DNA of 64,000 bases from positions 32,001-96,000 of IMG/VR virus record IMGVR_UViG_3300008952_000012, one strand, 5' to 3'. The notes under the pieces are model-generated. The model was not told the DNA's origin and searched no databases. It saw only the letters and a list, made by a program, of their open reading frames with translations. Shown here piece after piece: positions 1 to 52,355 of this stretch. Source of the stretch: a virus. The translations under genes and the position numbers were made by a program. The stretch's first letter is position 1; each line of letters begins with the position of its first letter.

Positions 1-773
1 AGATCTTTCAGGTCGGGACATCTAAGGTGCCAAAGGATGTGAATTTCACGTTTGAGGCCATGGCCACACCACCCTGGTTCGCAGATATTTATCACGCCGC
101 TAATATCGGCGCAGAATATTACCAGCCTATGATGGGGTGCCAGTCCGTGGTGGATGGCTCTCTTATAGATTTAGCGGACGGCGAAGAGTGGAAAAAGGGC
201 CATACGCTTGAAGAGGTCGTTGAGTCGGAGGGGGAGGGGGAGCAGACGATTAAGCACGAGACGATCATACTCCCTATGCCAACAACTGATGGTAAGGGAA
301 CCCGTGAGGTCCTCATACCTAAATCATTGATGGACCCGGTTATTACCACATCAGCCGCCGCAGAGGCGCTAGCGGAGCTATGGCTTGGGTTAAAAGAGAT
401 TGGCGCTAATACTAATTTGTTTATAGACGCCTACAATGATAGAGCATACGCAACAATGATTGATATATTAGGCAACTTGAATAAGGACATTTTATTGAAG
501 GTGCAGGATATGAACTCACCCAATATAACTTTGGGTGACACACCATTTGAGGGGTTCCATACATGGGCCGTTGGGAACCTGAAAGGCCTTTTAGATGGGG
601 AGGGGACGCCTATATCGGGCGCTGATGAGCGCTTGATTAAAGCGGACCCAAGAACCAAGCCCAGAACGGTCGATGCTTCTGTTGACACGCGGGCAGACAA
701 ATACGCAGCCGCCGCCTCATATTCTAGAGAATTACAGGCAGGGAAGCGTGGATATTCACCGGAGACTGCATAA
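1..773 (+). CDS. Hypothetical virion-module protein, 5'-truncated at the window edge
   Basis: The frame of the 27..773 ORF stays open back to base 3 (IFQVGTSK...), so the gene probably begins upstream. Its stop overlaps the next ATG (taatg). No recognisable motif. Confidence 0.6.
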   Translation, partial: IFQVGTSKVPKDVNFTFEAMATPPWFADIYHAANIGAEYYQPMMGCQSVVDGSLIDLADGEEWKKGHTLEEVVESEGEGEQTIKHETIILPMPTTDGKGTREVLIPKSLMDPVITTSAAAEALAELWLGLKEIGANTNLFIDAYNDRAYATMIDILGNLNKDILLKVQDMNSPNITLGDTPFEGFHTWAVGNLKGLLDGEGTPISGADERLIKADPRTKPRTVDASVDTRADKYAAAASYSRELQAGKRGYSPETA

Positions 774-1062: not shown

Positions 1063-1596
1063 ATGGAACAATTAAGTAAGTTGGCTGCCAAACAAAGGTT
1101 GGTTGCCGTTCTGGAACGGGAGTTCAGTGAAACTCCCGATTTTGATAAAGAAGCAAAAGCAAAAGCCTTTTTCGAGAATGTCGGGAAAGCGCTGTCTGGC
1201 TGGGGAAAGAAAGCCAAGGAAACCGCTAAAGGCGCTGTTGAGGGCGTCAAAAAGGAGGTTTCTGTGATGCGAGGCAAGCCCCAGGAGAAGCTCAAAGAAG
1301 AGGCGAAGCAAGGGCGGCTACTAAAAGTGCTTAAATCCAAGCCAAAGGCGCAGTCAAAGAAGCAAGCGAAAAAAATCCTCAGTCAGGACTCAGCCAAAAC
1401 TCTCGCTGACCGGAGCAAAGCTCTCGACAAGGCCGAAAAGGGCCCTTTGACCAAAAAACAAAAGCGTAAGCTGATGGTCATGGACAAACAAACTAGTCAC
1501 TCTAGAAAGAGGGCCGTCGCTGTAGGTGGTGGTGGCTTATTAGGTTTAGGAACTTTGGGACTGATGAGCAGTTCCGACAAAACAGAGCGGGCGTAG
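1063..1596 (+). CDS. Basic K-x-A-motif protein with a C-terminal Gly-rich hydrophobic segment (putative virion internal/ejection protein)
   Basis: Strong RBS (GGAGG) before the ATG. SKLAA and FDKEA motifs are followed by a Lys-rich amphipathic region. C-terminus is AVAVGGGGLLGLGTLGLM. Confidence 0.7.
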   Translation: MEQLSKLAAKQRLVAVLEREFSETPDFDKEAKAKAFFENVGKALSGWGKKAKETAKGAVEGVKKEVSVMRGKPQEKLKEEAKQGRLLKVLKSKPKAQSKKQAKKILSQDSAKTLADRSKALDKAEKGPLTKKQKRKLMVMDKQTSHSRKRAVAVGGGGLLGLGTLGLMSSSDKTERA

Positions 1597-1616
1597 CTCG
1601 TATTTATTAGGAGGTA

Positions 1617-2519
1617 ATGAAGATGCTTTCAGCAGATAGACGAGCTACGTTGGAAAACCGGCTTGCAAACACAGTGTATGAAGAACCACAGCCCATGTAT
1701 AAACAGGCGACCATTGAGAAGGTGGCTGAGTTTAGGGATTATTACGGGTGGATGTGGCCTATTGCTCTTGAGAAAGAGGCCGCTGCCGCTGGTAACGAAG
1801 AGCTTATGAAGATCGCTGAGATTGAGAAGCAGGCTATTAAGGCGTGGCTTCTTCGCCAGGGTCTTGGTTTAGCAGGCCGAGCGCGGCAGGTGGCGGGTGC
1901 TCTTAAGTCTACCGCTGGTCGTGGGTTAAGTCGTTTCGGGGTGGCCGGTGGCCGCGCTGATCTGGCTGGCCAGAGAGCGATCCGCGCTGGTCAGCAAACC
2001 AAAGCGTATGGTACTGCTCAACGCGCAACTGCTCAGGCAGCCAAGGATATTGGCCTCACCCCAGCGCTGGCGCGAGTTATTAGCGGCACGACCAAGGCGC
2101 AGACTAGAGCCGCTGCTGCAAAGGCCGGTACCTCGAAAGCTAAGCAAATCACTCAGGCCACCACTAGGGCCCGGGCTGACGCAAGCTTCAAGGGAAGCTT
2201 GGTTGACAAGGCCAGAGCCAAGGGCCTGATTCCCGGCGACAAGGGCGCGACCCGTGCTTTCACTAAGAATACCAAAGATAAGAAGCTCACAAGACAGCTT
2301 GTCAATGTTCAGGGCCAGAAGGCTAAGGGCAAAATGGTTCGAGACATCTACGGTCGAGCTACGGCACAGGCCGCTGAGCGGGGCGGTATTGCCGGAGTCA
2401 CCCAGAAGGGTCTTGAGGCAGCACTCGCTGCACCATCCACTGTCAGTAGGTGGGGCAAGGGTCTGAAGCGGGCATTTGGTAAAAGAGATTGGGCCGCTGA
2501 AGCTGCTCGTCTTGCGTAG
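1617..2519 (+). CDS. K-x-A-motif precursor-like protein with an Ala/Gly/Arg/Lys-rich mature region (putative virion internal protein)
   Basis: AGGAGG RBS; the ATG at 1623 has better spacing than 1617. Five motifs (YKQA, EKVA, EKEA, MKIA, EKQA) lie in the first 73 aa, after which the composition switches to strongly basic. Confidence 0.7.
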   Translation: MKMLSADRRATLENRLANTVYEEPQPMYKQATIEKVAEFRDYYGWMWPIALEKEAAAAGNEELMKIAEIEKQAIKAWLLRQGLGLAGRARQVAGALKSTAGRGLSRFGVAGGRADLAGQRAIRAGQQTKAYGTAQRATAQAAKDIGLTPALARVISGTTKAQTRAAAAKAGTSKAKQITQATTRARADASFKGSLVDKARAKGLIPGDKGATRAFTKNTKDKKLTRQLVNVQGQKAKGKMVRDIYGRATAQAAERGGIAGVTQKGLEAALAAPSTVSRWGKGLKRAFGKRDWAAEAARLA

Positions 2520-2542
2520 CATAACTTGAGAGTAAACTTGGT

Positions 2543-3442
2543 ATGGAGATGGCTTTGGAATCCAATCCTGTAGTGGATTTCCTGAAATTTGCTGAAAAGC
2601 GAACTCAGGTGCGCGCACACGTGCGACGCACAAAAGACAAAGTTGTACCAGTTACTCAACATGATCGGGAGCTATCCGAATCCGCAGAGGAGGATAAACA
2701 TGCCCCCGAAGGCTACGCACACCCGGAGCTACAGTTAGACGATAAGAAGGCCATAGAACTTGAGTTGTGGCGGAAGTGGAAAGAGGGGGGAGAGAATCCT
2801 AGAGACCTCGCCCCCCTTTTGCGAAGCTTCCGACCACTGCTCAGGTCCAAAGCCAACGTCTACAAAGGCAAGGTGAAGATGATTCCAGACTCTGCCATTG
2901 AGGCAGAGTTTCAACTTCGCTTTGTTGACGCCCTGCGCTCCTATGACCCGAAGAAGGGCTCACTAGGAACGTACGTCTATAGGTATTTGGATAAGTCGAA
3001 GCGCTTCATTGTCGAGAACCAAAACATCGGTCGCATACCCGAAAACCGTGTCTACAAGATTCGGCAGTACACCTCCGCTAGGGATGAGCTATCGGAAGAT
3101 TTTGGGAGGGTGCCCTCTGTTGAAGAGGTTGCCCAAAGACTCGGATGGAGGTTGGCGGAAGCAAAGCGTATGGATTCTGAACTTAGGAATGATCTGCTAA
3201 CGCAGGGGTTCGAAGAAGATCCATACGCCATTACTCCGTCAAAATCAGAAGAGGTGCTTCGCCTTTTCAAGTATGAGCTTACGGGCAACGAGCGTGCGGT
3301 GTACGAACACCTCACCGGTTATGGAAAACCAAAGATTTCGTCAACCAGCGAAATAGCTAAGCGCTTGAAGATGCCAGACTATCAGGTCAGTCGCCTCAAG
3401 AATGCTATTCAAAAAAAGTTAAAGAGGTATCTACATGGCTGA
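2543..3442 (+). CDS. Phage RNA polymerase sigma factor, sigma-70 family (FliA/WhiG-like)
   Basis: Region 2-like YDPKKGSLGTYV, RIP motif, region 3-like FGRVPSVEEVAQRLG, and region 4 HTH-like LTGNERAVY...STSEIAKRLKMPDYQVSRLKNAIQKKLK. Confidence 0.85.
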   Translation: MEMALESNPVVDFLKFAEKRTQVRAHVRRTKDKVVPVTQHDRELSESAEEDKHAPEGYAHPELQLDDKKAIELELWRKWKEGGENPRDLAPLLRSFRPLLRSKANVYKGKVKMIPDSAIEAEFQLRFVDALRSYDPKKGSLGTYVYRYLDKSKRFIVENQNIGRIPENRVYKIRQYTSARDELSEDFGRVPSVEEVAQRLGWRLAEAKRMDSELRNDLLTQGFEEDPYAITPSKSEEVLRLFKYELTGNERAVYEHLTGYGKPKISSTSEIAKRLKMPDYQVSRLKNAIQKKLKRYLHG

Positions 3443-4181
3443 TAAGAACAAGACCGCGAATATCGCCAAGGTCCATTTCCTTATGAAGGAAAAGGGTATG
3501 AGCGCTACAGAAGCAATCAAACAAGCGTACCCAAGCTGGCCCGAAGAAAAGGTCAAGGCTTTAGCAGCCAAGCTTGATGCCATGAAGGGCGCGGGCAAGG
3601 CGATGGCCTCCGGCGGACCAATGGCAGCCAAGAAAGAAGAGCCACAGGAAGAGGAAGCTGAAAAAGAAGCGTCTGTGCTCGTGGCTGGCTTGCGGCAGGG
3701 CTCTGGCGCTCTTTACGGAAGCTTCGTTAAAAAGCAGGCTGCCCGAGAGAAGCTAGCGGCAGTCGTTTCTAACAACTGGCTGTCGAACAAGTACCTCGGA
3801 CCAGCCCTGGCGCTTAGTGATAATGACCTCTACAAAAACTACATGACTCGGTCACCGTACGTGAACACCGGCCTGGACACGCGCTTTTATAAAGAGAAGC
3901 AGGCGATGCTCAATCCGCTCGCCGCTGCCAAGGCGACTAGATGGCTGAAGACACTTTTTAGTGAAGGGTCGAAAGCCGTGAGCAAGGGTGCAAGGCATGT
4001 CGCTGAGAAAACGAGCAAGACGGTTGCCAAGCACATGCCCAGAACGAGCGCGTCCGTTAGGTCGAAGTTTCAGGATCTTGTTAAGAACAATCCCGAGGCC
4101 TGGGCGAACATCAAGAAGTACTACAAGCCTGTTCTTGGCGGCGCTGCTGGCACTATAGCCATCGGCAAGTTGGTGGATTAA
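3435..4181 (+). CDS. K-x-A-motif protein (putative virion internal protein)
   Basis: Overlaps the sigma stop codon. Motifs NKTA, IKQA, EKEAS, KKQAA, EKLAA and EKQAM are followed by a basic amphipathic segment and a GGAAGTIAIG C-terminus. Confidence 0.7.
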   Translation: MADKNKTANIAKVHFLMKEKGMSATEAIKQAYPSWPEEKVKALAAKLDAMKGAGKAMASGGPMAAKKEEPQEEEAEKEASVLVAGLRQGSGALYGSFVKKQAAREKLAAVVSNNWLSNKYLGPALALSDNDLYKNYMTRSPYVNTGLDTRFYKEKQAMLNPLAAAKATRWLKTLFSEGSKAVSKGARHVAEKTSKTVAKHMPRTSASVRSKFQDLVKNNPEAWANIKKYYKPVLGGAAGTIAIGKLVD

Positions 4182-4183
4182 AA

Positions 4184-4441
4184 ATGGCCACGCTGCATGG
4201 ATTATTACTTAGAAATACGAATAAGGATGAGTTTTTAGAAGATTTAAAAACTCAGGTTGTCCGGTTTCTTCGTTCTGAAAAGATAAGACTCAAAACTGAG
4301 AGAGCCTTTCTAACATCTGTGCAGGCGGGTCTTACGGAAGCCGACATTAAGTACAAGAGGTTGGCAGAGGTAGAGACCTATGCTGACGTTTCTAAGCTCT
4401 TAGGGATTAGCCCATCAAAGGACACAGGCAGTGAAGGTTAA
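4184..4441 (+). CDS. Small hypothetical protein
   Basis: 85 aa ORF tightly packed between its neighbours in the same operon. Confidence 0.6.
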   Translation: MATLHGLLLRNTNKDEFLEDLKTQVVRFLRSEKIRLKTERAFLTSVQAGLTEADIKYKRLAEVETYADVSKLLGISPSKDTGSEG

Positions 4442-5678
4442 ACTAGGGACAAACGCGGTTCTTCCGTTCTTCGATTCTACAGCAGTGGTTGGCGTTGCCA
4501 GCTTCACTGTTCAGGTCGATGACCCTAGTGGTGCAACCATTGCCACAGTGGACATGGTGGCGGTTACAGATGTACCCAACCTTCACCTAAGCGAGCCGGT
4601 TCTATTCGCTACCCCAGGTCAGCATACTGCAACGTATACTTACGACGGTGATGTCGTTAAGCAGGCATTCATTGAGGCCGGTGCCGCACCGATAAGCGAC
4701 TACCCAAGAGCCGTTGCTTCCCCACTGGTGCTGGACCAGCGAGTTGCTGGTGGCCCCGCCGAAACAATCACCGTGCAGGTCATTGATCAGTCGGGGGAAA
4801 CCGTCTTTGGGCCAGTGATTGCTCCATATGTTGCCGGTTCTTCTGGTTACGTATCTTCATATACGTTTCTTAATGAGGAGCAGTACTTTGTTGTCTGGCT
4901 AACGGGCGCTCCGGCTGTCCCCTTTAACATGGAGCCAGCCATTGTCTTGGCCCCGCTGGGGGCGGAGACGTGTAGGTTTACTGTTGCCACCCTGGAAGGG
5001 AACAACGGTAATCCGCACACGAGTACAACCGTTTTAGCGAGTCTCCCAAACGGCACACCTGTAGCTCAAGGCCTTACCGACATAGAGGGCGAGGTTGTGA
5101 TCAACCTAGATCCGACAAGCTATGTTTTGTCTTTAGCGAAAGACGGAGTGGTCTTTTCCAGAAATAACTTCACCATTGACGTTATCAACACCAGGGAGAT
5201 CTCTAACGACCCGCTATTGTACTCACCAGAGGCAACCGAGATTCAGGCCTTCCAGATTGTTACAGGCTCTTTTACTCCGACGTTCACTGCCCCCATATCC
5301 CCAGCGCCAATGTGCCAGCTATTCGCTGATATTTACCGCATGAGTGGGAAGCCTTTATCACACGCTAATGTGCAAGTGCGGCTTTTGCATACGCCCCAGT
5401 TGTTTTCCGGGGTAGCCGTGTTTGATACACAGGCTACGCATAAAACAGACGCCAACGGGCATGTGGAGTTTATGCTTGTTCAGGGGGTTAAAATAGAGGT
5501 AATAATTGCTCCGCTCTCGCTGAGACGCATTGTTACCGTGCCCTCTGGGGACGACGCGGTTGATCCAAATTCAGGACAGTTTATACCTGTCAATCTACTA
5601 GATCTTATGGCCAGCGCTGACGATGTATTCAACATCATTAAGGCCGAGGCCCCAGCCGCTCCGAGGAGGACTCTGTAG
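4431..5678 (+). CDS. Beta-rich structural protein with Cna-B/carboxypeptidase-regulatory-like (transthyretin-fold) domains
   Basis: GTG start. Two T-D-x-x-G-x-V motifs (GLTDIEGEVVI, KTDANGHVEF). Paralogous to 8201..9163. Confidence 0.55.
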   Translation: MKVKLGTNAVLPFFDSTAVVGVASFTVQVDDPSGATIATVDMVAVTDVPNLHLSEPVLFATPGQHTATYTYDGDVVKQAFIEAGAAPISDYPRAVASPLVLDQRVAGGPAETITVQVIDQSGETVFGPVIAPYVAGSSGYVSSYTFLNEEQYFVVWLTGAPAVPFNMEPAIVLAPLGAETCRFTVATLEGNNGNPHTSTTVLASLPNGTPVAQGLTDIEGEVVINLDPTSYVLSLAKDGVVFSRNNFTIDVINTREISNDPLLYSPEATEIQAFQIVTGSFTPTFTAPISPAPMCQLFADIYRMSGKPLSHANVQVRLLHTPQLFSGVAVFDTQATHKTDANGHVEFMLVQGVKIEVIIAPLSLRRIVTVPSGDDAVDPNSGQFIPVNLLDLMASADDVFNIIKAEAPAAPRRTL

Positions 5679-7360
5679 TGAGTTTTGACCGAAAAGAAGC
5701 GCTGGATTTCATGCGGAGGTTTACAAAAGAAGCCTCCGCATCAAGCGTATCCGGACGGCCCGGGCAGGGCCTTGATATTATGGGGATGGGCATGGCCCCG
5801 TGGCCCATTAAGCAGCAGCCAGTCACAGGTGCGACGACACAGAGCTTACTGAGCAAGCAGCTTGTTAACTACGCGGCGAAGTCTCAACAAAAGAAGATGA
5901 CGGGAAGTATCAACGCGTCTGGCAACCGGCAGATGGCCAAAAAAACCGGCAAGGGCGAGCTTCTCGGAAAGACCGACACCATTCTCTCCGATCCGAACGA
6001 AGCAAAGACTGCTGCGGTCAAGAAGAGAGAGCGCCCGCGAGAAGTAAAGAATCTTCTGTCAAGACTTACTGGTGGGGACATAGCTATTGCTGGTGGGATC
6101 TCCGGAGCCGGTACGGGGCTCGCTACATATGACCAGCTAGGGAAATTCAACGAACTCCTGAAGGGGCACGAAAAAGCCCTGAAGTCCAAGGCCCGAAGCC
6201 TAGAAGGCACGGGGAAGCTAAAGGCCGAGACGCTTGAGAAGCTATACAAGGAAAAGGCGGAGAAGCTCCCGAGGCTGCTTCGCTGGTATGCGAAACGAAA
6301 AGGCATGCCGGACACAATCGACCTAAAGAAACATCTACCGGAGATAGAGAAGCAGATCCCACGGCTAACTATGTCAAGGAAGGCCGTAACCCGGACAGCC
6401 ATGAAATCGGGGGCCAAGGTTGGTACCGGCGCTGTTCTGTCACTCCTTCTAGCCCGAGCTTTGTCCAGGAAAGCAGAGAAGAGCAGAAAACTGACAAACA
6501 TCACCAACGTCCTCGATGGCGGCACTGTGAAGCTGTCCTCTGCAGAATATCTTGAGAAGGAAGCCCGTTTCGCTGCCGCAGCACGCATGTGGGGGTGGGG
6601 CAAGAACCTTCTCCGAAATCTTGCCCCTAGGGTTGCTGCACCAGAGGCCGCGTTACCACATGCCGGAAAAGTATTTCAAAGCGCTGGGGCGGGAACCTCT
6701 GAGGCGGTCAATGCCTCTACGAGATTAAGAAACGCGCTTAGTGCTGCCAAAGGAAAGTTTTGGGCGAAGGGAACCGGAAGGAAAAACGTATACCGCAAGC
6801 TAGATGATGCCGGTAAACCGCTTCTGGACGACGCCGGAAAAGAAGTGCAGTTCCTTTCAAGCAAGGGGATGTTTAGGGCACCCAAAGACTGGCAGAAGGT
6901 AAAGAGATGGGACCAGACCGGTGGGTGGATTCAGCAGGGCGTGAAGGGTCTCGCTAGACATGGATCACAGGGTGCCGTAGGCGGATACGGTTTGTCGTGG
7001 GCGTTAAACCAAGACGCTAAGTGGAATGACCAGAAGCGCATCGATATGGCCTTAGGTGGCGCTCTCCTCTACCCATCCATGAAGTTTTCAAACATGCCTG
7101 CGTCGCTAGCAGCGGCTGGGGCGCAATGGGCTGCCCCAAACACTCTTGGAGGAGTTATCCCCGGAGCGTTTACGTCGGCCAAGCGACTTTGGGACACTAA
7201 GGGCGGCGATGGTACTCGCTTTTCAAAGATGCAGAATCTTAGCACTTCGTTAGCGGCACCACAGTTGGCGGCCAGAAAAGCTACTGAAACCAAGGCTAAG
7301 AGGCTGAACGCCAACGCACGCAAAATTCAACGAGAGCTTGCCGAGGCAAAAACCACATAG
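5678..7360 (+). CDS. Large basic K-x-A-motif polyprotein-like virion protein with several Gly/Ala-rich hydrophobic segments
   Basis: GGAGG RBS and GTG start. Motifs RKEA, TKEAS, AKTAA and internal YLEKEA (6554-6565). Hydrophobic segments include GGDIAIAGGISGAGTGLA, GTGAVLSLLLA, GAVGGYGLSWAL and ASLAAAGAQWAA. Confidence 0.7.
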   Translation: MSFDRKEALDFMRRFTKEASASSVSGRPGQGLDIMGMGMAPWPIKQQPVTGATTQSLLSKQLVNYAAKSQQKKMTGSINASGNRQMAKKTGKGELLGKTDTILSDPNEAKTAAVKKRERPREVKNLLSRLTGGDIAIAGGISGAGTGLATYDQLGKFNELLKGHEKALKSKARSLEGTGKLKAETLEKLYKEKAEKLPRLLRWYAKRKGMPDTIDLKKHLPEIEKQIPRLTMSRKAVTRTAMKSGAKVGTGAVLSLLLARALSRKAEKSRKLTNITNVLDGGTVKLSSAEYLEKEARFAAAARMWGWGKNLLRNLAPRVAAPEAALPHAGKVFQSAGAGTSEAVNASTRLRNALSAAKGKFWAKGTGRKNVYRKLDDAGKPLLDDAGKEVQFLSSKGMFRAPKDWQKVKRWDQTGGWIQQGVKGLARHGSQGAVGGYGLSWALNQDAKWNDQKRIDMALGGALLYPSMKFSNMPASLAAAGAQWAAPNTLGGVIPGAFTSAKRLWDTKGGDGTRFSKMQNLSTSLAAPQLAARKATETKAKRLNANARKIQRELAEAKTT

Positions 7361-7380
7361 GCTCTATAAGGAAGTTAGCT

Positions 7381-8187
7381 ATGGAATATTACGTATCAAA
7401 TGAAAAACGGGAGCAGCTAAGAACTGCTTTTCATAAAGTAGCCATGGCTAAGTCTCCCAGCCTTGAGAGCAAGGTTCTAGAGACAACTACTAAGCTTGCG
7501 TTTGTTCGTGAGCTTGCGGAAATTGACCCGGGCTTGGATTTCGAAAAGACCGCTGGTTTCTGGGACTTCGTAAAGAAGTGGGGTCCGGATATCGCACTTA
7601 CCGCACTTATGTTTGTGCCTGGGATTAACGTTGGCGCAGGTGCCATGCTTGCTGCCCGAGGAGCGCTCGCCGTAGGCAGGGCAGGGCTGGCCGCTCGCAA
7701 AGTGTATCAGGCAGGAAGGGCGGTTAAGGGCCTAAGGAGCCTAAAAACTATGGGCTCGGCCCTCAGGGGACCGAAAGCGGTAGCGAGTTCTTTCAGAAAG
7801 GCGCAAGGGCTTAAGCCAGGAACGTTCCTAAGAGGCGCAAACAATACTCAGAGAGCCGCGTGGAAATCGCAAGCTCAGGGTGGTAGAGGCATGCTGTCGA
7901 AGGCTTGGCACGGCACTGGTAAGGGTTCGTGGCGCGGCGGCGGCGGCCTCAAGAGCGTTGTTGGTAACACAGACAAGGCTACCGGCGCGTGGAAGTTTAG
8001 TCCTTTAAAAACTGGCTTCAATGCCCTCGCACTGGCCGAAGGTGTCCCAGCGGCCAGTCGAATGGTGAGAGGAAAGCCCAAAACTTGGGGCGATCATATG
8101 GGCGGCGGCGGAGCCGGACAGAGCCACTATCAAGGCGGCGGATTCAAGAAGATGCAGGCCTTGTCATCTGGCGCTGCAAACGCATAG
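7381..8187 (+). CDS. K-x-A-motif protein with a predicted membrane helix (putative ejection/membrane-active protein)
   Basis: FHKVA, TKLAF and DFEKTA are followed by GFWDFVKKWG, then the hydrophobic IALTALMFVPGINVGAGAMLAA and a Gly/Lys/Arg-rich remainder. Confidence 0.7.
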   Translation: MEYYVSNEKREQLRTAFHKVAMAKSPSLESKVLETTTKLAFVRELAEIDPGLDFEKTAGFWDFVKKWGPDIALTALMFVPGINVGAGAMLAARGALAVGRAGLAARKVYQAGRAVKGLRSLKTMGSALRGPKAVASSFRKAQGLKPGTFLRGANNTQRAAWKSQAQGGRGMLSKAWHGTGKGSWRGGGGLKSVVGNTDKATGAWKFSPLKTGFNALALAEGVPAASRMVRGKPKTWGDHMGGGGAGQSHYQGGGFKKMQALSSGAANA

Positions 8188-22035: not shown

Positions 22036-25000
22036 ATGGCGCAGCTACCTGTATCCCCCACATGGGACCTTATAGACTACACGTTTAGAGCTTCGGATAG
22101 CGATATCTACGGCACTGGTGCGCGGTTCCTTGGTGATACGGTTTCTAGTATTGAGGGCCTCTCGTACATCCAGTACCCCCACAACGTTGTTATTGATGAC
22201 GCGTACGTATCGTTTATTGCCAAGACGTCAGACTCCATAGCTGCAATCAAGGAGACAAGCTCTCTCATAGTGTCCGCAGAAATAAACGGCGGCATACCAG
22301 AGAACTTCTCTATTGAGTTTGACATCTTCTTAAGTGAGGACCTGCCTAAGCAGGCCAGCAATAAGGAAAATCGCTTATTCGTTGGGGCAACCAACGTACA
22401 GGGGTACTCGGCAGGTTTCATATTCAGCAGAGAAGGTATCCATGTAGCCAATTCTCCTGACGATCCAAGCCCCGTTATTCTTGGTGGGTCTTCGTCCGTT
22501 ATGTTTAAGGACGACGGTTCCCCTGTGGACGGGCTGTTTATCAGGGCTGTTGTAAGCGGCGAGGACGGGCGGCTATACGTGTACGCCGAGTCTTCGGAGA
22601 AGGCCTACTATACAGAGAAGAACATAACCGATGCGGAGTTGTTGGCCTCCAGGGCAGCTAAATTCGCAGTCTCCCCGCTTGGCGACGCTGTGATCATTCA
22701 TGGGTCTGCCCTGTCTGCCGCCATGCAGGTTGAGCTAGGCATGCTCCCGCCAGGAGAAGATACTGCCATTGGGCAGGACGTTTCTTTTTCGATTGGGTCA
22801 TTAAGGCTGTCTGGGGCCAAGAGGTTCCCCAAGGACAGGCCGGAGGCTTCAATTGTCGCCCAAAGCCAAATAGTTGTTGGGCAAGCAATGGTGCTCAATG
22901 GCACGCAGAGTTCAGACAAGATGGCGAGGCCGCTAGACTTCTTCTGGGAAATAGACTTAGCCCCCGAGGAAAGCACGGCAAAGATGCAGGGGGCCAAGCA
23001 CTCCGAGTGCTCGGTTACGATACCAGCCCCTGACCCGCTAGACCCACCAATCGAGGTAGCCCAGCTTGTATTCATTGAGGCATCACTAAAGCATAATGAT
23101 TATAAGTTAATACTCGAACTCGGTGGGCCGGGAGGGTCTCTCACAACTGACATCGACTTCGTGGCCAAAGAGATACGTGTAAATCTTGAGGCTGATTTAG
23201 CAGGGGACCCCGCCACAACAGTCGCAGACTTCTTAGCGTCGTTCTCAGACACGTTGGCTGCCGGGTACAATATGAAGGTCTCTGGCGGAGAAGACCTCAC
23301 AACGGGCACCGTTTACCCAAGAATAGTAAAAGCTCTATTTACAGAGGGCACCGTTGCATCTGGGAACGAGATGGTCCAACCGGGCGTGTTCTTGTTTTCC
23401 GGAGGGGTTGGGTCAGACCTCACGTCGCCAATCTTTATTCCGGACGTCCCCGGTACCTACATACTCAGCCTGATTGTCCACAACGGCATTAGGCAGAGCC
23501 GAAAAGACCTACAGGTTGTTACCGCCACGGTTTCCGAGCAGCTTCTCGGACACAGGCCGAATTCTACGTACATCTTCAAGTACCTCCCAGACTTTTGGAA
23601 TCTAGTCTCGGATAAAAAGCAGCTATCAGCAATATGGTCTGCCATGACGCAGGCAGTATCATCAGAGTTACTTGTTGCTTGGCAGAACGATTATGGGAAG
23701 GCCCTACGAGACATATCTCGTAGATACCAGCGTCGATGGCTGCACCACGATTGTGCGATTGAGATCCCACCAGATACGCCAGTTGATTTAATCTTCAACG
23801 AGACGGCTGAGTATGGAACACAGCCAGACAAACTTAGCGTCAACCCCATAGCCGAGGGAACTCATACAAAGATTTCCTACATCGTAAGTCCCGAGTTGGT
23901 GCAGCCGGTTCAGGTCGGGAAGGGCTTGGTATTTAGTGACATTGGGCCACCAGAACCCATAGAGATTACAGAGGTCTCTTATGTGGACGACACGGTCGGG
24001 TGGAAGATTTCGAGCAAGCTCACCTCATTCCCTGTTTACGACCTCATAGCTGAGCGTACCGGAGGCTACTTCGTACAAGACCCTGATGACGTAATCGTTG
24101 TAACGCCGGTAAAAAGTGCGGTTCTGTATGAGCCAACGTACCCGTTCTCAAAGATAAACCAAGAGACTGATCGCGTACGCTTGTACAAAAAGGATGGGAC
24201 CACAGTCACAAGCCCTGTTGTCGAGTTCGGTCCCGGGGGGAAAAAGAACACGATCAGACTTGATATTGAGAGAGAAGAGGCAGACGGGCTAGCCAGAAGG
24301 TGGGATCATCTTCGAGAGGTTCAGTACCAGTCTCTTTGGCAGGGACCATACTTATCAATATTCCAGACGTTCTACTTTAGTGATGATGTTGTTTTTGAGA
24401 ATGGCGATCTTGCAAAGATCCAGATTATTGATCCGTACACTAGCGCAGAGGTCGATGTCCACCTTCCCATATACGCATTTGTGGACAACGATCTATTTGT
24501 ACAGTGGGAACCGTTAATAAGCTCGCTAAATGCCGCCGCTAAACTAAATGGTGATGAGAAGGTATGGACAGAAGAGGACCTTAAAGAGTTGGGCTGGAAG
24601 CTCACCGCCCTCGTCAAGCACAAGGAAACTTTTAAGAAAGAAGATCTAGTCTCCATACCCATCCTTGGCGAGACCACCGTGACCCCAGAGGGGCTCAAGG
24701 AGAGGTTCGACTTCGATGTAAGGGACAACAGGATAGCTTTTAAGCCACTCCTTTCTGGGGCGGTGGACCTTGTTTCGACTACGGTAATCGCAGACGACGT
24801 ACCTATACAGTGCTGGTCAGCCACGCTTAAACCTGACTTTTCGTACCACCCAGCCCTAAGCGATATTGTAAATTCTGTTTCTATACTTGATTCGGATATG
24901 GCGCAGGAGATGGGGTTCTACTCTGTTGTCCTAGAGGACGGGCCCGCTGGTACATACAAGCTTTTGGGGGTATCCGAGGACGGCACCAAGATCCTTCTCG

Positions 25001-43209: not shown

Positions 43210-43242
43210 TTCTTATGCCTAAAAAGGGGGGCGTTTTTGCGC
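43210..43242 (-). promoter_or_regulatory. Putative phage promoter GCGCAA-N17-GGCATAAGAA
   Basis: The minus strand reads GCGCAA (43242-43237), a 17 nt spacer, then GGCATAAGAA (43219-43210). Boxes and spacing are identical at 44212-44244. Confidence 0.6.
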
Positions 43243-43247
43243 CCCCC
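43221..43247 (-). terminator. Rho-independent terminator after the phosphoesterase gene
   Basis: 8 bp GC stem GGGGGGCG/CGCCCCCC followed by TTTTT on the minus strand. Confidence 0.75.
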
Positions 43248-43262: not shown

Positions 43263-44036
43263 CTAATTAATGTGGATAGGGTCGCAGTAGACCGTGTCCG
43301 CTTTCACGGACAGATACCCAACGTCACCGTTGCGAAACAGAAGCGCTGCACAAAGCTGCCCACCGTGAACACACCCGAGGTCAAGACCTGTGGCGTGCTT
43401 GAACTTCTTGGGATTTCCATCTTGGTTCAGCCAGGGCTGGTGGCCAAAATAGACATGCCCGAATCTGTTGTCATACAGTTCGGCCCAGAAGACATCTCGG
43501 TCTGTCTCTTCCCCAAACGTGACCATAGAACCGGCATCGTCTACGAAGCGAATGAACATTGTTCTTTCCGCCCGCCGTCGTTGCTTGTTCGACAGTTCGC
43601 TTAGATCATCAGGCATCGTTTCCATTTTAGGAGTGATCCCGCCATGAACAACAGAGAAGCCGTCACGCTTCACGTAAGTAACGACCTTGAAGCGTAACCA
43701 ATCGCGAAGCTCCTGGTCTGTTGACTCCATGACTCCAGAGAGTTCAATGGAGCCCTTCATCTCCATAGCCTTCTCCACGTCTCCGGCTTCGGCCTTCTTC
43801 CAGAATCGAATGTTCTTCGACTCGTGGTTTCCCTGAACAACGGTCGCCAAGCTACCCATGTCACGTACGTACCGGAGCACTCCTGCACTATCCGGCCCCT
43901 TGTCAACGAGATCACCAACGAAGATAAACTCGTTCACCGCGTCATCTGTGGGCGTCATGAGCCGATCTATCGCGCCCATTAGCTCCTTGAGTTCTTTGAG
44001 ACATCCGTGGACGTCGCCAATGATTGCTTTTGCCAT
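43263..44036 (-). CDS. Calcineurin-like metallophosphoesterase (PPP/ApaH/PrpE family)
   Basis: Full motif set IGDVHG, VGDLVDKGP, GNHE, VHGG, FGH and GLDLGC. The start is placed at ATG 44036 because of the GGAGG RBS. Confidence 0.9.
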   Translation of the reverse strand: MAKAIIGDVHGCLKELKELMGAIDRLMTPTDDAVNEFIFVGDLVDKGPDSAGVLRYVRDMGSLATVVQGNHESKNIRFWKKAEAGDVEKAMEMKGSIELSGVMESTDQELRDWLRFKVVTYVKRDGFSVVHGGITPKMETMPDDLSELSNKQRRRAERTMFIRFVDDAGSMVTFGEETDRDVFWAELYDNRFGHVYFGHQPWLNQDGNPKKFKHATGLDLGCVHGGQLCAALLFRNGDVGYLSVKADTVYCDPIHIN

Positions 44037-44176
44037 TTCTCCTCCTTTACCAGTCCTGTGCCTGAGCACTTTGTGCATCTGTCAGAAGCCTCCTTTAGGC
44101 TACTTCCGTATCCGTTACAGTGACCACATTCAACGTACCCATACTTTTGGGGATTGAGCATTACTTCGAAATCCAT
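43979..44176 (-). CDS. Small DnaJ-type zinc-finger protein
   Basis: Two CxxCxGxG motifs (CGHCNGYG, CTKCSGTG) and a GGAGG RBS. Confidence 0.65.
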   Translation of the reverse strand: MDFEVMLNPQKYGYVECGHCNGYGSSLKEASDRCTKCSGTGLVKEEKWQKQSLATSTDVSKNSRS

Positions 44177-44211
44177 ACCTTCCTCCTAAGGTTGTTGTGG
44201 GGCCTCCATAG

Positions 44212-44244
44212 TTCTTATGCCATTATTATCGTGTGATATTGCGC
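44212..44244 (-). promoter_or_regulatory. Putative phage promoter GCGCAA-N17-GGCATAAGAA
   Basis: Second exact copy of both boxes with a 17 nt spacer, 36 nt upstream of the 44176 ATG. Confidence 0.6.
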
Positions 44245-44248
44245 ACAT

Positions 44249-44289
44249 AAAAAAAGAGAGGAGGCCTTCCGAAGAAGACCCCCTCTCTC
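44249..44289 (-). terminator. Rho-independent terminator with a cUUCGg tetraloop
   Basis: The minus strand reads GAGAGAGGGGTCTTC-TTCG-GAAGGCCTCCTCTC followed by T7. Confidence 0.8.
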
Positions 44290-44315
44290 ACCACAACCCC
44301 GAAGGAGGACGGGGA

Positions 44316-45062
44316 CTACTTTACGTACTTGCTAGGATTAGGAATTCTTGTGAGATCCTTAATCATGTCATCATCCTCATCCACAATGAGTGTGTTGACG
44401 ACATAGACTAGCGCGTTCGCGAGTAGATTATTTGCGTCCGTCTGCTCCTGTCGAACAGCCTGTAGTTGGGCCTCAAGACTTGAGAGCCTATCCAACAGGC
44501 CGCTGACATCGAAAGCCTCTTGCACAACAGGTGCGCTAACAGACTCTACCTGAGCAGCTTCTTCCGCAGGTGTCTCAACCTTCTTGAAGCCCGTCTTAGC
44601 ACTCTTTTTAGTAGCCACAGCCTTTTTCTTTTTGGTTGCTGTTGCTTTCTTTGCAGGTGCTTTATTTTCCGCCGTAGCGTCCTTACGTGGCCTACCGCGC
44701 TTCCTCTTGGGAGGCGCAGCTTCAGGCTTTTCCGCCGTCTCTTCTTTGGCCTCGCTATCTTCAACATCCCCGTCTTCAGGTTCTGGCGGCCACTCAGGAG
44801 CGGTGCCGTCACCCAGAATAAACTTCTGTAGACGCTTGATGTACGGCCCAACGCCGCTGCGGAATGTGTCCTCGATCCCGACGCCACTGATGCTTAGGCC
44901 AGCGAATTCTTCCGCTCTCTCATGAATCCATGAGACTACCTCAGCTTCTTTCATCGTGTACGCGTCGAGAGGCTCAAGCCCCATTCCTACGATTGCAATT
45001 TTTCTCAATTCGGCACGGTCTAAAGGACCGAGCATTTTCTTTGTAAAGCGTTTAGTCGCCAT
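44316..45062 (-). CDS. AT-hook / histone H1-like nucleoid-associated protein
   Basis: Start at ATG 45062 (GGAGG RBS). KRKRGRPRK at 44682-44708, a Lys/Ala-rich linker (KAPAKKATATKKKKAVATKK) and a C-terminal coiled coil. Confidence 0.65.
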   Translation of the reverse strand: MATKRFTKKMLGPLDRAELRKIAIVGMGLEPLDAYTMKEAEVVSWIHERAEEFAGLSISGVGIEDTFRSGVGPYIKRLQKFILGDGTAPEWPPEPEDGDVEDSEAKEETAEKPEAAPPKRKRGRPRKDATAENKAPAKKATATKKKKAVATKKSAKTGFKKVETPAEEAAQVESVSAPVVQEAFDVSGLLDRLSSLEAQLQAVRQEQTDANNLLANALVYVVNTLIVDEDDDMIKDLTRIPNPSKYVK

Positions 45063-45342
45063 AGTTTTTTTCCTCCATAAGCTTGCTGTGACAATACACA
45101 ACTACGCCATCATGATGATTGTAACAATTACCATCACAAGGCAGTGATAGCTTGTTGCGGTTCTCCTTAATATACTCTGTTAACTTGTCTCTGATTGGGT
45201 TAAGGGCGCTGTTTGGGACTTCATCAGTCTTATACTGAAGAAAGTCGTGTAATTGCTCTACGGGGGTTGATGGGCACGCCCGGACTCCCATCTGTTCCCA
45301 TACGATGTGTAATAGCTCGCTTTTGTTTGTTTTCGGGTTCAA
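45052..45342 (-). CDS. Small protein with a Cys/His cluster
   Basis: TTG start after AGGAG, adjacent to the rusA stop. PCDGNCYNHH...YCH motif. Confidence 0.55.
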   Translation of the reverse strand: MNPKTNKSELLHIVWEQMGVRACPSTPVEQLHDFLQYKTDEVPNSALNPIRDKLTEYIKENRNKLSLPCDGNCYNHHDGVVVYCHSKLMEEKNYGD

Positions 45343-45774
45343 TCACAACTCCTGGATGCTAAATCGAATACCTACAAAGTCATTATCCGGCCCGTGGTGC
45401 TTTTTCACAAACTCTTCAATAAAGCACGAGTCGTCGATTGCCAAGCACTCAGCGATAACGTCCTCTAGCACCTTTACGAGGTTAGACACATCGCGCCGCT
45501 TATATCTAGTCTTCGCCTTCTTTGGCCATCCTTTATTGTACAATGATGGCAGAAAATAGTGAATATTCAATCGGTACGGGTGATCCGGGTTCAGCGGTTT
45601 TTTGCTGAAACCTACCTGCTTTGCTATTTGAACAGAGGCTCTCGCCTTGAACTGCTTCATTTTAGACGAAGGGCGTGGCCCACGTGTTGTGTAGACATAC
45701 ATGTCGTTTACCGATGGGGGGAGAATTGAAATCTCGGCCTCGAAAACAACAGTATTGTCGTCATTAATCTTCAT
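45343..45774 (-). CDS. rusA: RusA-like Holliday junction resolvase
   Basis: PPSVN.MY, RRDVSNLVKVLED and IDDS motifs of the RusA family. Confidence 0.85.
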   Translation of the reverse strand: MKINDDNTVVFEAEISILPPSVNDMYVYTTRGPRPSSKMKQFKARASVQIAKQVGFSKKPLNPDHPYRLNIHYFLPSLYNKGWPKKAKTRYKRRDVSNLVKVLEDVIAECLAIDDSCFIEEFVKKHHGPDNDFVGIRFSIQEL

Positions 45775-46336
45775 TCCCTATCCGTTTAAATGCCCCTGGG
45801 TATGATTTCGTAGACTGTTTAGGGGGGGATGTAAAAAAGTCTTCATCTCTGTCACTTTCGTTCTGGGTTCTAAACCATAGTTCTCTTCCGATCCTATCCA
45901 TACACTTGCTTACTTTCCGCTTCCGGTCTTCCTGGACGGCCAGCTTAGCCTTGAAGTACGTATAGTCGCGAAGCGCTCCGACGACGTCTGGGTCTGTTTC
46001 AACCGCTGCCTTTCTCTGATCCGAGTTTGTCAGCTTGGAGTCTGATGCGACACGCTTTGTCGCCTCGGCGCTCTTAAGCCCCAACCTAGCTTTGCTCACA
46101 GAGGAGTAACACGTATCCTGCGCAACCTGATCAGTGAGATAAGCATAGTAGGACAAGAACTCGTCGTATAGATCTTTTAGGAACCCATTTGACTTACTGC
46201 TCAGCCCCGGCGGGATAATTGGTTCCGTACCCGGTGGCTCTTTACTTGGAGAAAACCCGGTTACCCGGAGGTCTTCTTCTAACGTTTCTCGTAGGTCAAG
46301 GAAGAGGTCCCCTCCCTTGCTATTTTTTCCTGCCAT
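45764..46336 (-). CDS. Helical protein, possibly a UvsY-like recombination mediator
   Basis: All-helical, with a KAAVETDPDV...Y segment reminiscent of UvsY, and located in the recombination cluster. The functional call is weak. Confidence 0.4.
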   Translation of the reverse strand: MAGKNSKGGDLFLDLRETLEEDLRVTGFSPSKEPPGTEPIIPPGLSSKSNGFLKDLYDEFLSYYAYLTDQVAQDTCYSSVSKARLGLKSAEATKRVASDSKLTNSDQRKAAVETDPDVVGALRDYTYFKAKLAVQEDRKRKVSKCMDRIGRELWFRTQNESDRDEDFFTSPPKQSTKSYPGAFKRIGNED

Positions 46337-46355
46337 TTATCCCCCTTCCGGATGG

Positions 46356-47063
46356 TTAAAATTCTGGGTTGCACACATGGGCAAACTTGCATGTTCTACA
46401 AACCCACTTGTCCGGCTCTCGCGGAGGCTCAGTACCTTTCTCGATATGGCCCTCCACGTGCTTTATGACATCAAGAACGTCTTCCCAGACCGAGTTTTCA
46501 AACTTAATCTTGAAGAGCCTCATTGAGCCCGTGGCACGGTTTACATAAAGAAGCTGGCACCGTGGGATATCCAACGCAAACATGTATGCGTGGATTTGGT
46601 AGATGTGATCAACCTTCGGCTTTGTCAGGTTTCTGTAGACACTTTCGCCCACAGTCTTTATTTCCAGAACCCACTCTTTGTCGTAGAAAACCCCGTCGCA
46701 ATGACCGGCAATATGCAGGTCCTCAAAATTTACCGGGACCTCAGACTTAAAGTCATCAAACTTCTTTTCTAACTTCGACTGGATCATGTCATGCAGGGCG
46801 TGCCCCATGTCAAACAGCATCCGTAGGTCTGCCGGGATTCTGCTCTCTGGCTCTTCGCCAGTTCTGTCGTACCAAACTGCCCTTTTACAAGCACCGGGGT
46901 TTAATGAAGAGGGGTGGTAAACGTTTGTCTTCCTGCTCCACTCTTCTTTGTTCATCTCCTCGTGGAGAGTATCCAGCGCGTTTATTACATCAAAACTTTT
47001 ATCCCATTCCGGGGCCTCTTCCCTGAGGCACCTTTCTGGTATCTTGAATTTCTTCTTTGTCAT
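46356..47063 (-). CDS. Cas4-like PD-(D/E)XK exonuclease with Fe-S cysteines
   Basis: HPSSL...CKR..WY, GHALH, GHCDG, LEIKT, QIHAY and C-terminal CRTCKFAHVC. Confidence 0.85.
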   Translation of the reverse strand: MTKKKFKIPERCLREEAPEWDKSFDVINALDTLHEEMNKEEWSRKTNVYHPSSLNPGACKRAVWYDRTGEEPESRIPADLRMLFDMGHALHDMIQSKLEKKFDDFKSEVPVNFEDLHIAGHCDGVFYDKEWVLEIKTVGESVYRNLTKPKVDHIYQIHAYMFALDIPRCQLLYVNRATGSMRLFKIKFENSVWEDVLDVIKHVEGHIEKGTEPPREPDKWVCRTCKFAHVCNPEF

Positions 47064-47824
47064 CAGATTCCCTTTGCGAACTCAAGAAACTTCTCATAGC
47101 TCATAAGAATGTATTCGTTGGAGTTGGCTGTAAATGTTATTCCAGCCCCAGATAGAAGCTTCTGTACGTGATGCAGAGTCACGGTAAAGCTTTTCTTTGG
47201 CGGCCTACCGCCAAGAGCCCTGACCTCAGAAAACGAGGACAGGTGGCTTTCTTCGAGTTCCTGCTTTGGAACAATGGCGATTTCCCCGCCTTTTCGTAAT
47301 TCAATAATATAAGCTGGGACCTTGCCCTGTGAGTAAGCCTGCTTCCTCAGAAAATCCAAGTCTTTAAGGCTCAGGCTGACGCGGTCGGACTTAGTCGTCT
47401 TTGCCTCTACAAGGATGCTCGGCGTCACGACATCTCTTTTATAGCCCCACCGAGATCCGGATGCTGGTTGCCGCTTACCATCGAGGTCGTCAGCGATTCT
47501 AGTTTCTTGCTTTTTGCTTATCTCGTGGTTTGTTAGCACGGCTTCAGCCTCCTCTATTACAATGTAATAGTTCTTGTTTTCGTATATTTCCCCGGCAACC
47601 TTGGTCCAGTCTATCCGCCCCAAGATCATTCTTGCTAACTCTAAAAACTTCTCTGGTACATGTGCGAGGACCGCAAGGCCACTGCTTACGTGCGTAATGT
47701 TATAATCAGATTCCGTGCGCGCACCGCCAGGGGTCTTATGCATAAAGAGCCCGGGCAGAAACGGCAGCGCATCGATTAGTACAAACTTTCCTTGCGGCCC
47801 CGTACATATACTAAGTCTAGCCAT
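47063..47824 (-). CDS. Hjc-like PD-(D/E)XK resolvase domain fused to an unknown N-terminal domain
   Basis: KKQETRIA...RQPASGS...KRDV...LVEAKTT. The start is probably ATG 47824, overlapping the recA-like stop. Confidence 0.7.
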   Translation of the reverse strand: MARLSICTGPQGKFVLIDALPFLPGLFMHKTPGGARTESDYNITHVSSGLAVLAHVPEKFLELARMILGRIDWTKVAGEIYENKNYYIVIEEAEAVLTNHEISKKQETRIADDLDGKRQPASGSRWGYKRDVVTPSILVEAKTTKSDRVSLSLKDLDFLRKQAYSQGKVPAYIIELRKGGEIAIVPKQELEESHLSSFSEVRALGGRPPKKSFTVTLHHVQKLLSGAGITFTANSNEYILMSYEKFLEFAKGI

Positions 47825-48866: not shown

Positions 48867-49111
48867 TATTCCTCCTCTAGCTCCTTCTTCAATTTCTCAA
48901 ACTCAGCGTTGAGGGTAGGGCTAATCTCGTCCAAGTTTTCGTCATAGAGCTTTCGCATGTCATCAAATAGTTTCTTCTTAAAGCCCTTTATCATGCCAGG
49001 GGCCTCACCAGAGGCCACCTTCTCCATAGCGTCGTCTTCTGTTTCACACAGCTTCATCTTTATGAGCGTGGCTATCACTTGGGACGAATCCCCATATTTA
49101 GTCATTGACAT
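48866..49111 (-). CDS. Small hypothetical protein
   Basis: 81 aa, coupled to the recA-like start (TAATG overlap), GGGGTG RBS. Confidence 0.6.
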   Translation of the reverse strand: MSMTKYGDSSQVIATLIKMKLCETEDDAMEKVASGEAPGMIKGFKKKLFDDMRKLYDENLDEISPTLNAEFEKLKKELEEE

Positions 49112-49610
49112 TGGTCACCCCTTTATTAGCAAGTCTTCCCAAAGTAACCTCACGCTCTGACACAATCGCCAGTGCATGGTCTTTTCCGATAACCCCAAGG
49201 TTTACCGTCAGGTATGCTCCGTTGGATAACTCAATAATCGCTGAATCATCTCCGGAGCACAAGAATACGTTTGAGATAGCATCCCCCTCCTGCAAGCATG
49301 TGTTTACCGCGCCGACAATTTCTCGTAGGGATTCGCGCTTAACATCGAAAATATTTCCGAGTTCCTCATTCATAACTATCTCCTTTTGACTTCTCGTCTT
49401 TTGTTTAATCTCCCACTCAGCGGCGGAAGCCTTTGATCTATTAGGGTACCCTCTTGAGTAGAGCAACCTAACAGGTCTTCTAGATCTTGTATATCTTGCT
49501 CCACGCTTGGAGTTATTATGCTCCCAGATGCGCCTACCTACGTCGGTTGTTACACCAGCGTAGATAGACCCATCTGAGCACGAAGCTAAATATACAAACC
49601 AAATTCCCAC
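49098..49610 (-). CDS. GIY-YIG nuclease (YhbQ/SLX1-like) fused in frame to a 91 aa unknown domain
   Basis: WFVYLASCSDGSIYAGVTTDV.RRI.EHN...GARYTRSRRPVRL...A..AE..IK. There is an internal AGGAG + ATG at 49373. Confidence 0.8.
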   Translation of the reverse strand: MGIWFVYLASCSDGSIYAGVTTDVGRRIWEHNNSKRGARYTRSRRPVRLLYSRGYPNRSKASAAEWEIKQKTRSQKEIVMNEELGNIFDVKRESLREIVGAVNTCLQEGDAISNVFLCSGDDSAIIELSNGAYLTVNLGVIGKDHALAIVSEREVTLGRLANKGVTNVND

Positions 49611-49612
49611 TA

Positions 49613-52288: not shown

Positions 52289-52298
52289 CTCCTTGGTG

Positions 52299-52341: not shown

Positions 52342-52355
52342 CTAGTCTTTAGAGA

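Follow-up and report, generated by a model that had tools for sequence, protein, structure and literature searches.

A Divergent Sigma-70-Family Protein in the Virion-Gene Block of an Uncultured Marine Phage, Its Conserved N-Terminal Extension and Its Probable Polymerase Partner

The sigma gene and its N-terminal extension

We analysed a stretch of viral DNA of 64,000 nucleotides (nt) from IMG/VR record IMGVR_UViG_3300008952_000012, called the window below. It covers bases 32001-96000 of a viral contig of 134.5 kb, ~75% complete, from an uncultured marine phage of ~180 kb; megablast of 20 kb of this DNA gave no matches to isolated phages. The subject is an intact open reading frame (ORF) at 2543-3442 on the plus strand, which encodes a sigma-70-family protein of 299 amino acids. 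The gene is embedded in a compact plus-strand block of virion genes, opposed by a replication module on the minus strand. A gap of 23 nt separates it from the upstream gene and it overlaps the next one by 8 nt, which leaves it without space for its own promoter outside coding sequence. The original prediction, made from the letters of the window, had taken the gene for a complete FliA/WhiG-like sigma that is made late, packaged by means of an N-terminal leader and injected to redirect host core RNA polymerase (RNAP) to phage early promoters.

Pfam detected Sigma70_r3 (PF04539) in the 299-residue protein with 34 bits against a cut-off of 25.3 (E = 3e-8), and PHROG 351 (phrog_351), "RNA polymerase sigma factor", was matched with E = 2e-13. 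A profile of 64 homologues aligned to RpoS and SigA structures of the PDB over regions 2.2-3.1 (E = 1e-8). The AlphaFold2 model (mean predicted local distance difference test score, pLDDT, of 79) has a helix pattern that fits sigma2, sigma3 and sigma4, and a Foldseek search with this model returned SigD, sigma-S, SigA and SigB over 256-286 columns at a probability of 1.00. Sigma70_r2 was not detected by Pfam, and Sigma70_r4 stayed below threshold at 11 bits. At the C terminus, alignments to TIGR02937 and TIGR02980 run through residues 296-297 with scores under the cut-offs, and Foldseek aligns the four C-terminal helices of the model with sigma4. Visual inspection places the invariant T143-Y144 and a conserved tyrosine, Y148, at the positions of sigma-70 T429-Y430 and W434. 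Using the AlphaFold2 helices, the RpoS alignment and Foldseek, we divided the sigma core (2741-3439, plus strand) into a region 1.2-like helix, sigma2 (residues ~86-163), sigma3 (~167-223) and sigma4 (~234-298).

We conclude that ORF 2543-3442 encodes a real, though very divergent, member of the sigma-70 family, with a sigma3 domain and predicted sigma2 and sigma4 domains. The family assignment of the original prediction is supported by Sigma70_r3, phrog_351 and Foldseek; its FliA/WhiG label was rejected, TIGR02479 scoring 24.5 bits against a cut-off of 189.6. Models of SigB/F/G, RpoS and RpoD score about as low, and all curated NCBIfam models lie far under their cut-offs. The architecture is group-3-like, yet the protein is not a FliA/WhiG member. 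It is the only detectable sigma of the phage, and a family-profile search of genomes G000-G004, where G000 is the phage studied here, gave one copy per genome.

Two homologues from isolated phages, gp10 of Salmonella phage Arash and the protein of Vibrio phage D69, begin at the position of residue ~66, so that ~65 residues at the N terminus are extra. More than 100 metagenomic homologues, on contigs of up to ~189 kb, cover 97-100% of the sigma, extension included. The alignment indicates that the extension is not a chance feature, because K15 and V23 are invariant among 64 homologues (down to ~53% identity) and six further positions (P9, F13, A17, R28, V37 and R42) reach 90% conservation or more.

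The alignments divide the extension into three parts. The leader helix NPVVDFLKFA (residues 8-17; 2564-2593, plus strand) was delimited in the alignment of 64 homologues and ends in Lys15-x-Ala17; the AlphaFold2 model has a helix at residues 9-18. Its consensus across homologues is NPVxDFLK(F/Y)A, and the FLKFA motif occupies residues 13-17 (nt 2579-2593). This helix is a candidate capsid-targeting leader with a candidate prohead-protease site. It is followed by a basic beta-hairpin, QVRAHVRRTKDKVVPVTQHDR (residues 22-42; 2606-2668, plus strand), with modelled strands at residues 26-30 and 33-37 and a doubled V-x-x-H-x-R motif. The hairpin consensus over residues 22-42 is V-x-A-H-x-R-R-x-x-G-K-x-V-x-V-x-x-H-x-R; the doubled motif itself, VRAHVR...VTQHDR, spans residues 23-42 (nt 2609-2668). 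An acidic, disordered linker (residues 43-66; 2669-2740, plus strand; pLDDT <50 at residues 42-60) leads into the sigma core and is variable in length, with insertions of up to ~60 residues in relatives. The extra ~65 residues with FLKFA and the doubled motif at 2609-2668 had been described in the original prediction; the positions were exactly as claimed, and the extension proved to be conserved.

Distant homologues separate the parts. The sigmas of loci L026 and L027 have both leader and hairpin; those of L028-L030 have a leader plus Lys-x-Ala (e.g. MNPLDEFLTLVDGLQKQAA) and no hairpin, and run straight into the sigma core. By this distribution, the leader with Lys-x-Ala and the hairpin are separable units.

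The phage polymerase and the shared hairpin

A bacterial-type RNAP in which beta and beta' are fused, 2089 amino acids long and recognized by its Pfam domains, is encoded in the same genome (genome G000, 96154-102423; window coordinates 64154-70423; L008:1155-7421). The ORF starts 154 nt beyond the end of the window. Its domains are Rpb2_3, Rpb2_6 (190 bits) and Rpb2_7, followed by Rpb1_1, Rpb1_2, Rpb1_3 and Rpb1_5. Its flap-tip helix, SKEQILLKGIHKS, can be aligned with Thermus TPEERLLRSIFGEKA; the clamp helices of beta' are likewise retained and align to bacterial beta'. Judged by these alignments, both principal sigma docking sites are kept in the phage enzyme. A search for alpha and omega homologues, positive in 14 of 14 control genomes, found none either in this contig or in any of four complete relatives. 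Each complete relative has exactly one RNAP and one sigma; a second sigma or a second RNAP, which would give virion and non-virion sets as in phiKZ, was considered and none was found in these genomes. Sigma and RNAP occurred together in nine of the 10 related IMG/VR contigs searched, the exception being a 61%-complete fragment, and the four isolated-phage records with a sigma homologue (Arash, D69, D181 and D148) were also the best RNAP matches.

Given the intact docking sites of the polymerase and the co-occurrence of the two genes, the phage enzyme is the natural partner, and we hold it very probable that the sigma serves this polymerase and not host core. Reviews describe phage multisubunit RNAPs without a sigma homologue and sigma-bearing large phages without a polymerase (PMC7824862, PMC7598289, PMC13282480). 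A few genes downstream of the RNAP lies a gene for an SNF2-type helicase of 606 amino acids (genome G000, 108948-110768; L008:13949-15766).

When a hidden Markov model (HMM) of the sigma N terminus was compared with the six-frame translation of the genome, the RNAP was the only other match. RNAP residues 854-881 (VTVREHKRKIKTTGGDTKEITVKEHKRE) carry the same doubled motif as the sigma (VTVREHKRK...ITVKEHKRE). This hairpin is a 33-residue insertion (residues 852-884) in the beta part of the chain, after GEPYAVENFQAN and roughly at Thermus beta 905-950; we take this region to be where Escherichia coli has its lineage-specific beta-i11 insert. A regular expression for the motif likewise matched sigma and RNAP only in the six-frame translation, against a mean of 0.115 and a maximum of 1 in 200 shuffles. 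Of four complete relatives with the hairpin that were searched, three again gave the RNAP insertion as the next match after the sigma (per-genome E of 1.7e-4 to 1.4e-3). The AlphaFold2 model of the beta fragment was of low confidence (pLDDT 63), and the insertion was not placeable in a holoenzyme structure.

The insertion is present in genomes G000-G006, all of which have sigmas with the hairpin, and absent from G008-G010, Arash and D69, all of which have sigmas without it. The polymerase tree groups the genomes with the hairpin in a single clade (support 90/92). Repeated covariation of the two hairpins was therefore rejected, since the tree requires one gain only.

The hairpin also occurs well outside this phage family. 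A 44-position profile of the N terminus was searched against 1.84 billion representative proteins and gave 69 matches at E <= 1e-3. The non-sigma matches contain the hairpin part two to six times per large protein, with a best E of 4e-18, either at the N terminus or ahead of successive modules. Among 15 matches that were scanned, eight (426-1936 amino acids) had recognizable domains, namely ADP-ribosyltransferase (Alt-like, ART-PolyVal), InPase, zincin peptidase, SAM lyase, C5 DNA methylase, Mom, PAPS reductase and DUF5661, together with a ParB-like PHROG match. By these domain assignments, the set is the repertoire of the phage polyvalent proteins, for which packaging in the head and injection are predicted (Iyer et al. 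2017, PMC5512222). The hairpin of the large proteins is often preceded by a short hydrophobic leader (YPLLQKA, NLIKA, LFGPKA or QLSLFG) ending in ...K-A or L-F-G, and this layout is that of the sigma, DFLKFA-EKRTQ-VRAH. The 299-residue sigma has no domains other than its sigma domains according to Pfam and AlphaFold2; the hairpin alone is common to it and the polyvalent proteins. The module has no Pfam model, and no description of it was found in PMC5512222.

A further group with the same hairpin module consists of small bacterial proteins of ~100 amino acids (P0133, P0138, P0142, P0148, P0150 and others), in which a signal peptide is followed by two to four tandem VKGYTRKTKSGKVVTVKGYTRK copies; these belong to no Pfam family. 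The module may simply be a polyanion binder.

Gene neighbourhood and virions of a relative

The position of the sigma gene is conserved. In 12 related loci the order is a 564-residue protein, a protein of ~1200 residues, small Lys/Ala-rich genes, the sigma, and structural proteins of 415 and 320 residues; the same relative order is found in Arash (gp6 to gp10) and in D69. For the most distant metagenomic homologues, synteny was read from IMG/VR loci. The original prediction had named synteny and N-terminal conservation in related phages as a check, and both were confirmed: the position is kept in 12 of 12 related loci and the extension in the more than 100 metagenomic homologues. The protein of ~1200 residues, which comes before the sigma in each of the 12 loci, has 1187 amino acids here, and the 3' end of its gene occupies 1-773 (plus strand) of the window. 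It has no Pfam match; the same relative position is taken in Arash by gp8, which bears the annotation of a cell-wall hydrolase and structural protein, and homology between the two was not detected. Pfam and PHROG searches gave almost no matches for the neighbours of the sigma gene and for the giant ORFs described below.

Three of the neighbouring proteins have a leader resembling that of the sigma. A search of the genome for D-F-x(1-5)-K-x-A in the N-terminal 70 residues gave four proteins, the sigma and the products of ORFs 1063, 5678 and 7381, whose genes all lie at 1063-8187 of the window; 0.48 were expected and none of 300 shuffles gave as many, figures that are indicative only, the pattern having been chosen post hoc. 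ORF 1063-1596 (plus strand) encodes a basic Lys/Ala-rich protein with an N-terminal D-F-D-K-E-A leader and no Pfam or PHROG match, which is a candidate internal virion protein. The product of 5678-7360 (plus strand) is a basic low-complexity protein of 560 amino acids with the leader ALDFMRRFTKEA, the orthologues of which have leaders ending ...TKEA, ...AKIA and ...VKVA. ORF 7381-8187 (plus strand) encodes 268 amino acids with a conserved IDPxFEK-x-A motif (L011, L012, L015 and L016). Leaders of this kind are thus retained by orthologues of the neighbours, and distant relatives have FFDELEKIA-type leaders on small proteins adjoining the sigma. With a looser pattern, the SNF2-type helicase is added by its N terminus (MSLGDYLLKSA), as is a small ORF beginning MNPLTNLGDYTKTA.

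A leader module shared at full length was tried and rejected, in that the HMM of the 45-residue N terminus found no other proteins of the genome. Of the shared leader supposed in the original prediction, only the short D-F-x(1-5)-K-x-A element is common to the sigma and three neighbours. The phage encodes a protease that matches a head-maturation-protease PHROG (phrog_18299, E = 2.5e-11).

Virions of Arash have been analysed by mass spectrometry (MS). The sigma (Gp10) was detected with 24 unique peptides and 467 spectra, RNAP beta (Gp206), the most-detected protein, with 128 and 3516, RNAP beta' (Gp216) with 40 and 1210, and the helicase (Gp217) with 38 and 1148 (PMC10585845). DNA ligase, primase and ribonucleotide reductase gave two unique peptides each, evident carry-over (PMC10585845). 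The Arash authors offered both readings and reported the sigma hit without analysis (PMC10585845). In a literature search we found no paper on a virion-packaged sigma besides the Arash report. The annotation of D69 (locus L010, record 23371-23910) includes a T4 Srd-like anti-sigma factor, and these RNAP-bearing phages may therefore also act on host sigma factors.

The remainder of the window holds further genes. Four consecutive giant ORFs of 2716, 2293, 1777 and 2518 amino acids fill 13879-42652 (plus strand). The first has an N-terminal Baseplate_J match and the other three have no Pfam family; presumably they encode baseplate or fibre proteins. The replication and recombination module (43263-59982, minus strand) encodes a family A DNA polymerase with exonuclease (PolA), a DnaB-type helicase, a RecA-like protein, a Cas4/PD-(D/E)XK nuclease, an SF2 helicase and a metallophosphoesterase. 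Strong GC-rich hairpin terminators lie at 43226-43247, the convergent junction of the virion and replication blocks, and at 44254-44289, between two minus-strand genes. A candidate phage-specific promoter, GTGCAAAAC-N17-ATAAGAAT(A/G)ATGG, has six minus-strand sites (window 43210-43242 and 44212-44244; genome 194, 6367, 6717 and 96141). One of these sites, at 43240, shares sequence with the loop of a bidirectional terminator, and the exact GTGCAAAAC-N17-ATAAGAAT pattern was not found in four relatives; for these reasons the candidate is not used as evidence. Sigma-70-type promoter-like sites showed no enrichment in the replication module (22 versus 14.8 +/- 4.3).

Proposed delivery in the virion, its alternatives and known systems

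We propose that the sigma would act as the promoter-specificity subunit of a minimal transcription machine of the phage itself, the core of which would be the 2089-residue beta-beta' RNAP. The sigma would be produced together with the virion proteins, and its short leader helix would target it to the procapsid, where the head protease may cut at Lys15-x-Ala17. Such a cut would leave the basic beta-hairpin at or near the new N terminus, the polymerase exposing the same hairpin as a predicted surface insertion. In other phages the hairpin accompanies the enzyme modules of polyvalent proteins, for which packaging into heads is predicted, and it would probably serve as a cargo handle. Sigma, polymerase and probably the SNF2-type helicase would then be ejected with the DNA, allowing early transcription without host RNAP.

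Packaging, cleavage, injection and the promoters read are steps that we infer. Packaging is supported by four independent, indirect lines, namely the conserved gene position, the shared leader, the cargo-type hairpin and the MS data from a relative. The original view of the sigma as virion cargo is supported indirectly by these points (position in 12 of 12 loci, leader, hairpin and Arash MS), and packaging is plausible but unproven. On balance we think it probable that the sigma is delivered in the virion. That it does so and also serves the phage polymerase is a reading towards which we lean slightly. The most complete version, in which an entire bacterial-type initiation machine (single-chain beta-beta' plus a true sigma-70-family factor) would be preloaded into the capsid and injected with the DNA, both proteins being marked by the hairpin and the sigma by a leader with a probable cut site, appears to us evenly poised.

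Several observations weigh against delivery. The position of the gene in a late operon is by itself no proof of it, and the leader pattern was picked post hoc, as noted above. Within this phage family the hairpin is limited to sigma and RNAP, a distribution that fits a sigma-polymerase contact equally well as a cargo handle. The tree indicates one joint gain of the hairpin by the two proteins, retained afterwards, and hence a single event. Since small bacterial signal-peptide proteins contain it, the hairpin is not specific to capsids. As a single RNAP and a single sigma serve the entire programme, each must also be produced in quantity during infection. Of 272 Arash proteins, 116 were listed for the virion preparation, some of them enzymes that are clearly non-structural (PMC10585845); its purity is doubtful and the MS data are suggestive, not proof. 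Finally, the Arash sigma lacks the entire N-terminal extension, which implies that the tag is not needed for such association as there may be in Arash.

The strongest of the competitors is a reading that we rate as unlikely, in which the sigma serves the phage polymerase, is made during infection and is not delivered, its N-terminal module working inside the cell. The hairpin could then bind the matching insertion in beta and provide an additional tether between sigma and core, in agreement with its occurrence in these genomes on sigma and RNAP only and its gain by both on the same branch. The acidic linker, disordered like sigma region 1.1, could resemble that region as a DNA mimic or auto-inhibitor. 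Arash, which lacks the module, gives the same MS signal, from a virion preparation that was probably contaminated. However, the same hairpin heads unrelated enzyme modules in polymerase-free proteins, so that core docking is not its general function, and the leader plus Lys-x-Ala is kept in hairpin-less sigmas and is common to neighbouring virion-block proteins. The gene lies deep in the virion block with no space for its own promoter, and the Arash sigma gave 24 unique peptides versus two for evident contaminants.

The remaining alternatives differ from our proposal in the partner or in the role of the extension. The original prediction, that the packaged and injected sigma directs host core RNAP to phage early promoters, shares all packaging indications with delivery alongside the phage polymerase. 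Proteins of the sigma-70 family can in principle bind bacterial core, and the lack of enrichment of sigma-70-type sites in the replication module would agree with early promoters that are phage-specific. Redirection of host core is nevertheless contradicted by the phage's own beta-beta' enzyme, which has both sigma docking sites, accompanies the sigma in all relatives that are sufficiently complete, carries the same hairpin and is the most-detected protein in Arash virions; moreover, the sigma is very divergent, Pfam regions r2 and r4 being undetected. We regard this alternative as improbable. More improbable still, to a degree that we would not expect it to hold, is an ordinary late or middle phage sigma of the T4 gp55 or SPO1 gp28/gp34 type, with an extension that has no targeting role and a motif likeness due to chance or composition. 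The only characterised phage sigmas are indeed those made after infection (PMC7824862, PMC7598289), but more than 100 homologues keep the extension, non-sigma proteins among 1.84 billion match the hairpin down to E = 4e-18, and an activator of late genes is not expected within the late block itself.

Delivery together with the phage polymerase can be compared with known systems. The nearest relatives are Arash (Gp10, Gp206/Gp216 and Gp217) and Vibrio phages D69, D181 and D148, with a homologous sigma (30-32% identity) and a homologous bacterial-type RNAP (~31%); in Arash and D69 the sigma gene stands at the corresponding place among the virion genes. Arash and D69 differ in that their sigmas lack the 65-residue extension and their RNAPs the hairpin insertion, and in Arash the RNAP is split over two genes where here it is one chain. 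The transcription machinery of phiKZ/AR9 and N4 is packaged and injected and reads early genes independently of the host (reviewed in PMC7598289 and PMC13282480). The likeness to these phages lies in transcription machinery encoded among late or virion genes, packaging here being proposed from the genes. phiKZ/AR9-type jumbo phages differ in having split, highly divergent beta/beta' pieces and subunits (gp68 and gp226) without sequence similarity to sigma (PMC7598289, PMC13282480), and the N4 virion RNAP is a T7-like single-subunit enzyme, in contrast to the bacterial-type beta-beta' chain and true sigma-70-family factor found here.

T4 gp55, SPO1 gp28/gp34, phiEco32 gp36 and the sigmas of RNAP-less jumbo phages are likewise phage-encoded sigma-70-family proteins that set promoter specificity; they differ in acting on host core RNAP and in being early or middle products (PMC7824862). 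The sigma described here is set apart from these post-infection factors by a phage RNAP partner gene, its position in the virion block and a cargo-type tag.

The leader invites comparison with the capsid targeting sequence (CTS) of T4. Both are short N-terminal leaders (~10-17 residues, an aromatic/acidic helix) with a small conserved end motif, both occur on unrelated proteins encoded near head genes, and a head-maturation-type protease (phrog_18299) is encoded here as well. The T4 sequence was reportedly the subject of a study by Mullaney and Black in 1996. On IPI-III and Alt it is a 10-residue leader that the prohead protease gp21 cuts off (PMC9026906). The present leader differs in its Lys-x-Ala, which stands in place of (L/I)-x-Glu, and in the basic hairpin that comes next; targeting and cleavage are predicted here. 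With the polyvalent proteins the sigma has in common a hairpin that, in them, stands ahead of ART, InPase, metallopeptidase, SAM lyase and methylase modules (PMC5512222), and it differs from them in being single-function and not a multi-effector chain.

Reviews place the action of phage sigma factors on host core after infection (PMC7824862, PMC7598289, PMC13282480). A large, mostly marine phage family in which a true sigma goes together with a minimal polymerase of the phage, both with cargo marks, contrasts with this picture. The cultured relatives Arash and Vibrio phage D69, both of which lack the N-terminal tag, open packaging and transcription to direct study. The cassette of leader, Lys-x-Ala and hairpin may be a general, transferable address label for loading of the phage head. 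If the pair is injected, it would represent a third, bacterial-type route to host-independent early transcription beside those of N4 and phiKZ, and the smallest known sigma-dependent multisubunit polymerase, without alpha and omega, attractive for work on mechanism and structure. The sigma would then be the first injected sigma factor, and an undescribed, widespread cargo-handle module would have a function.

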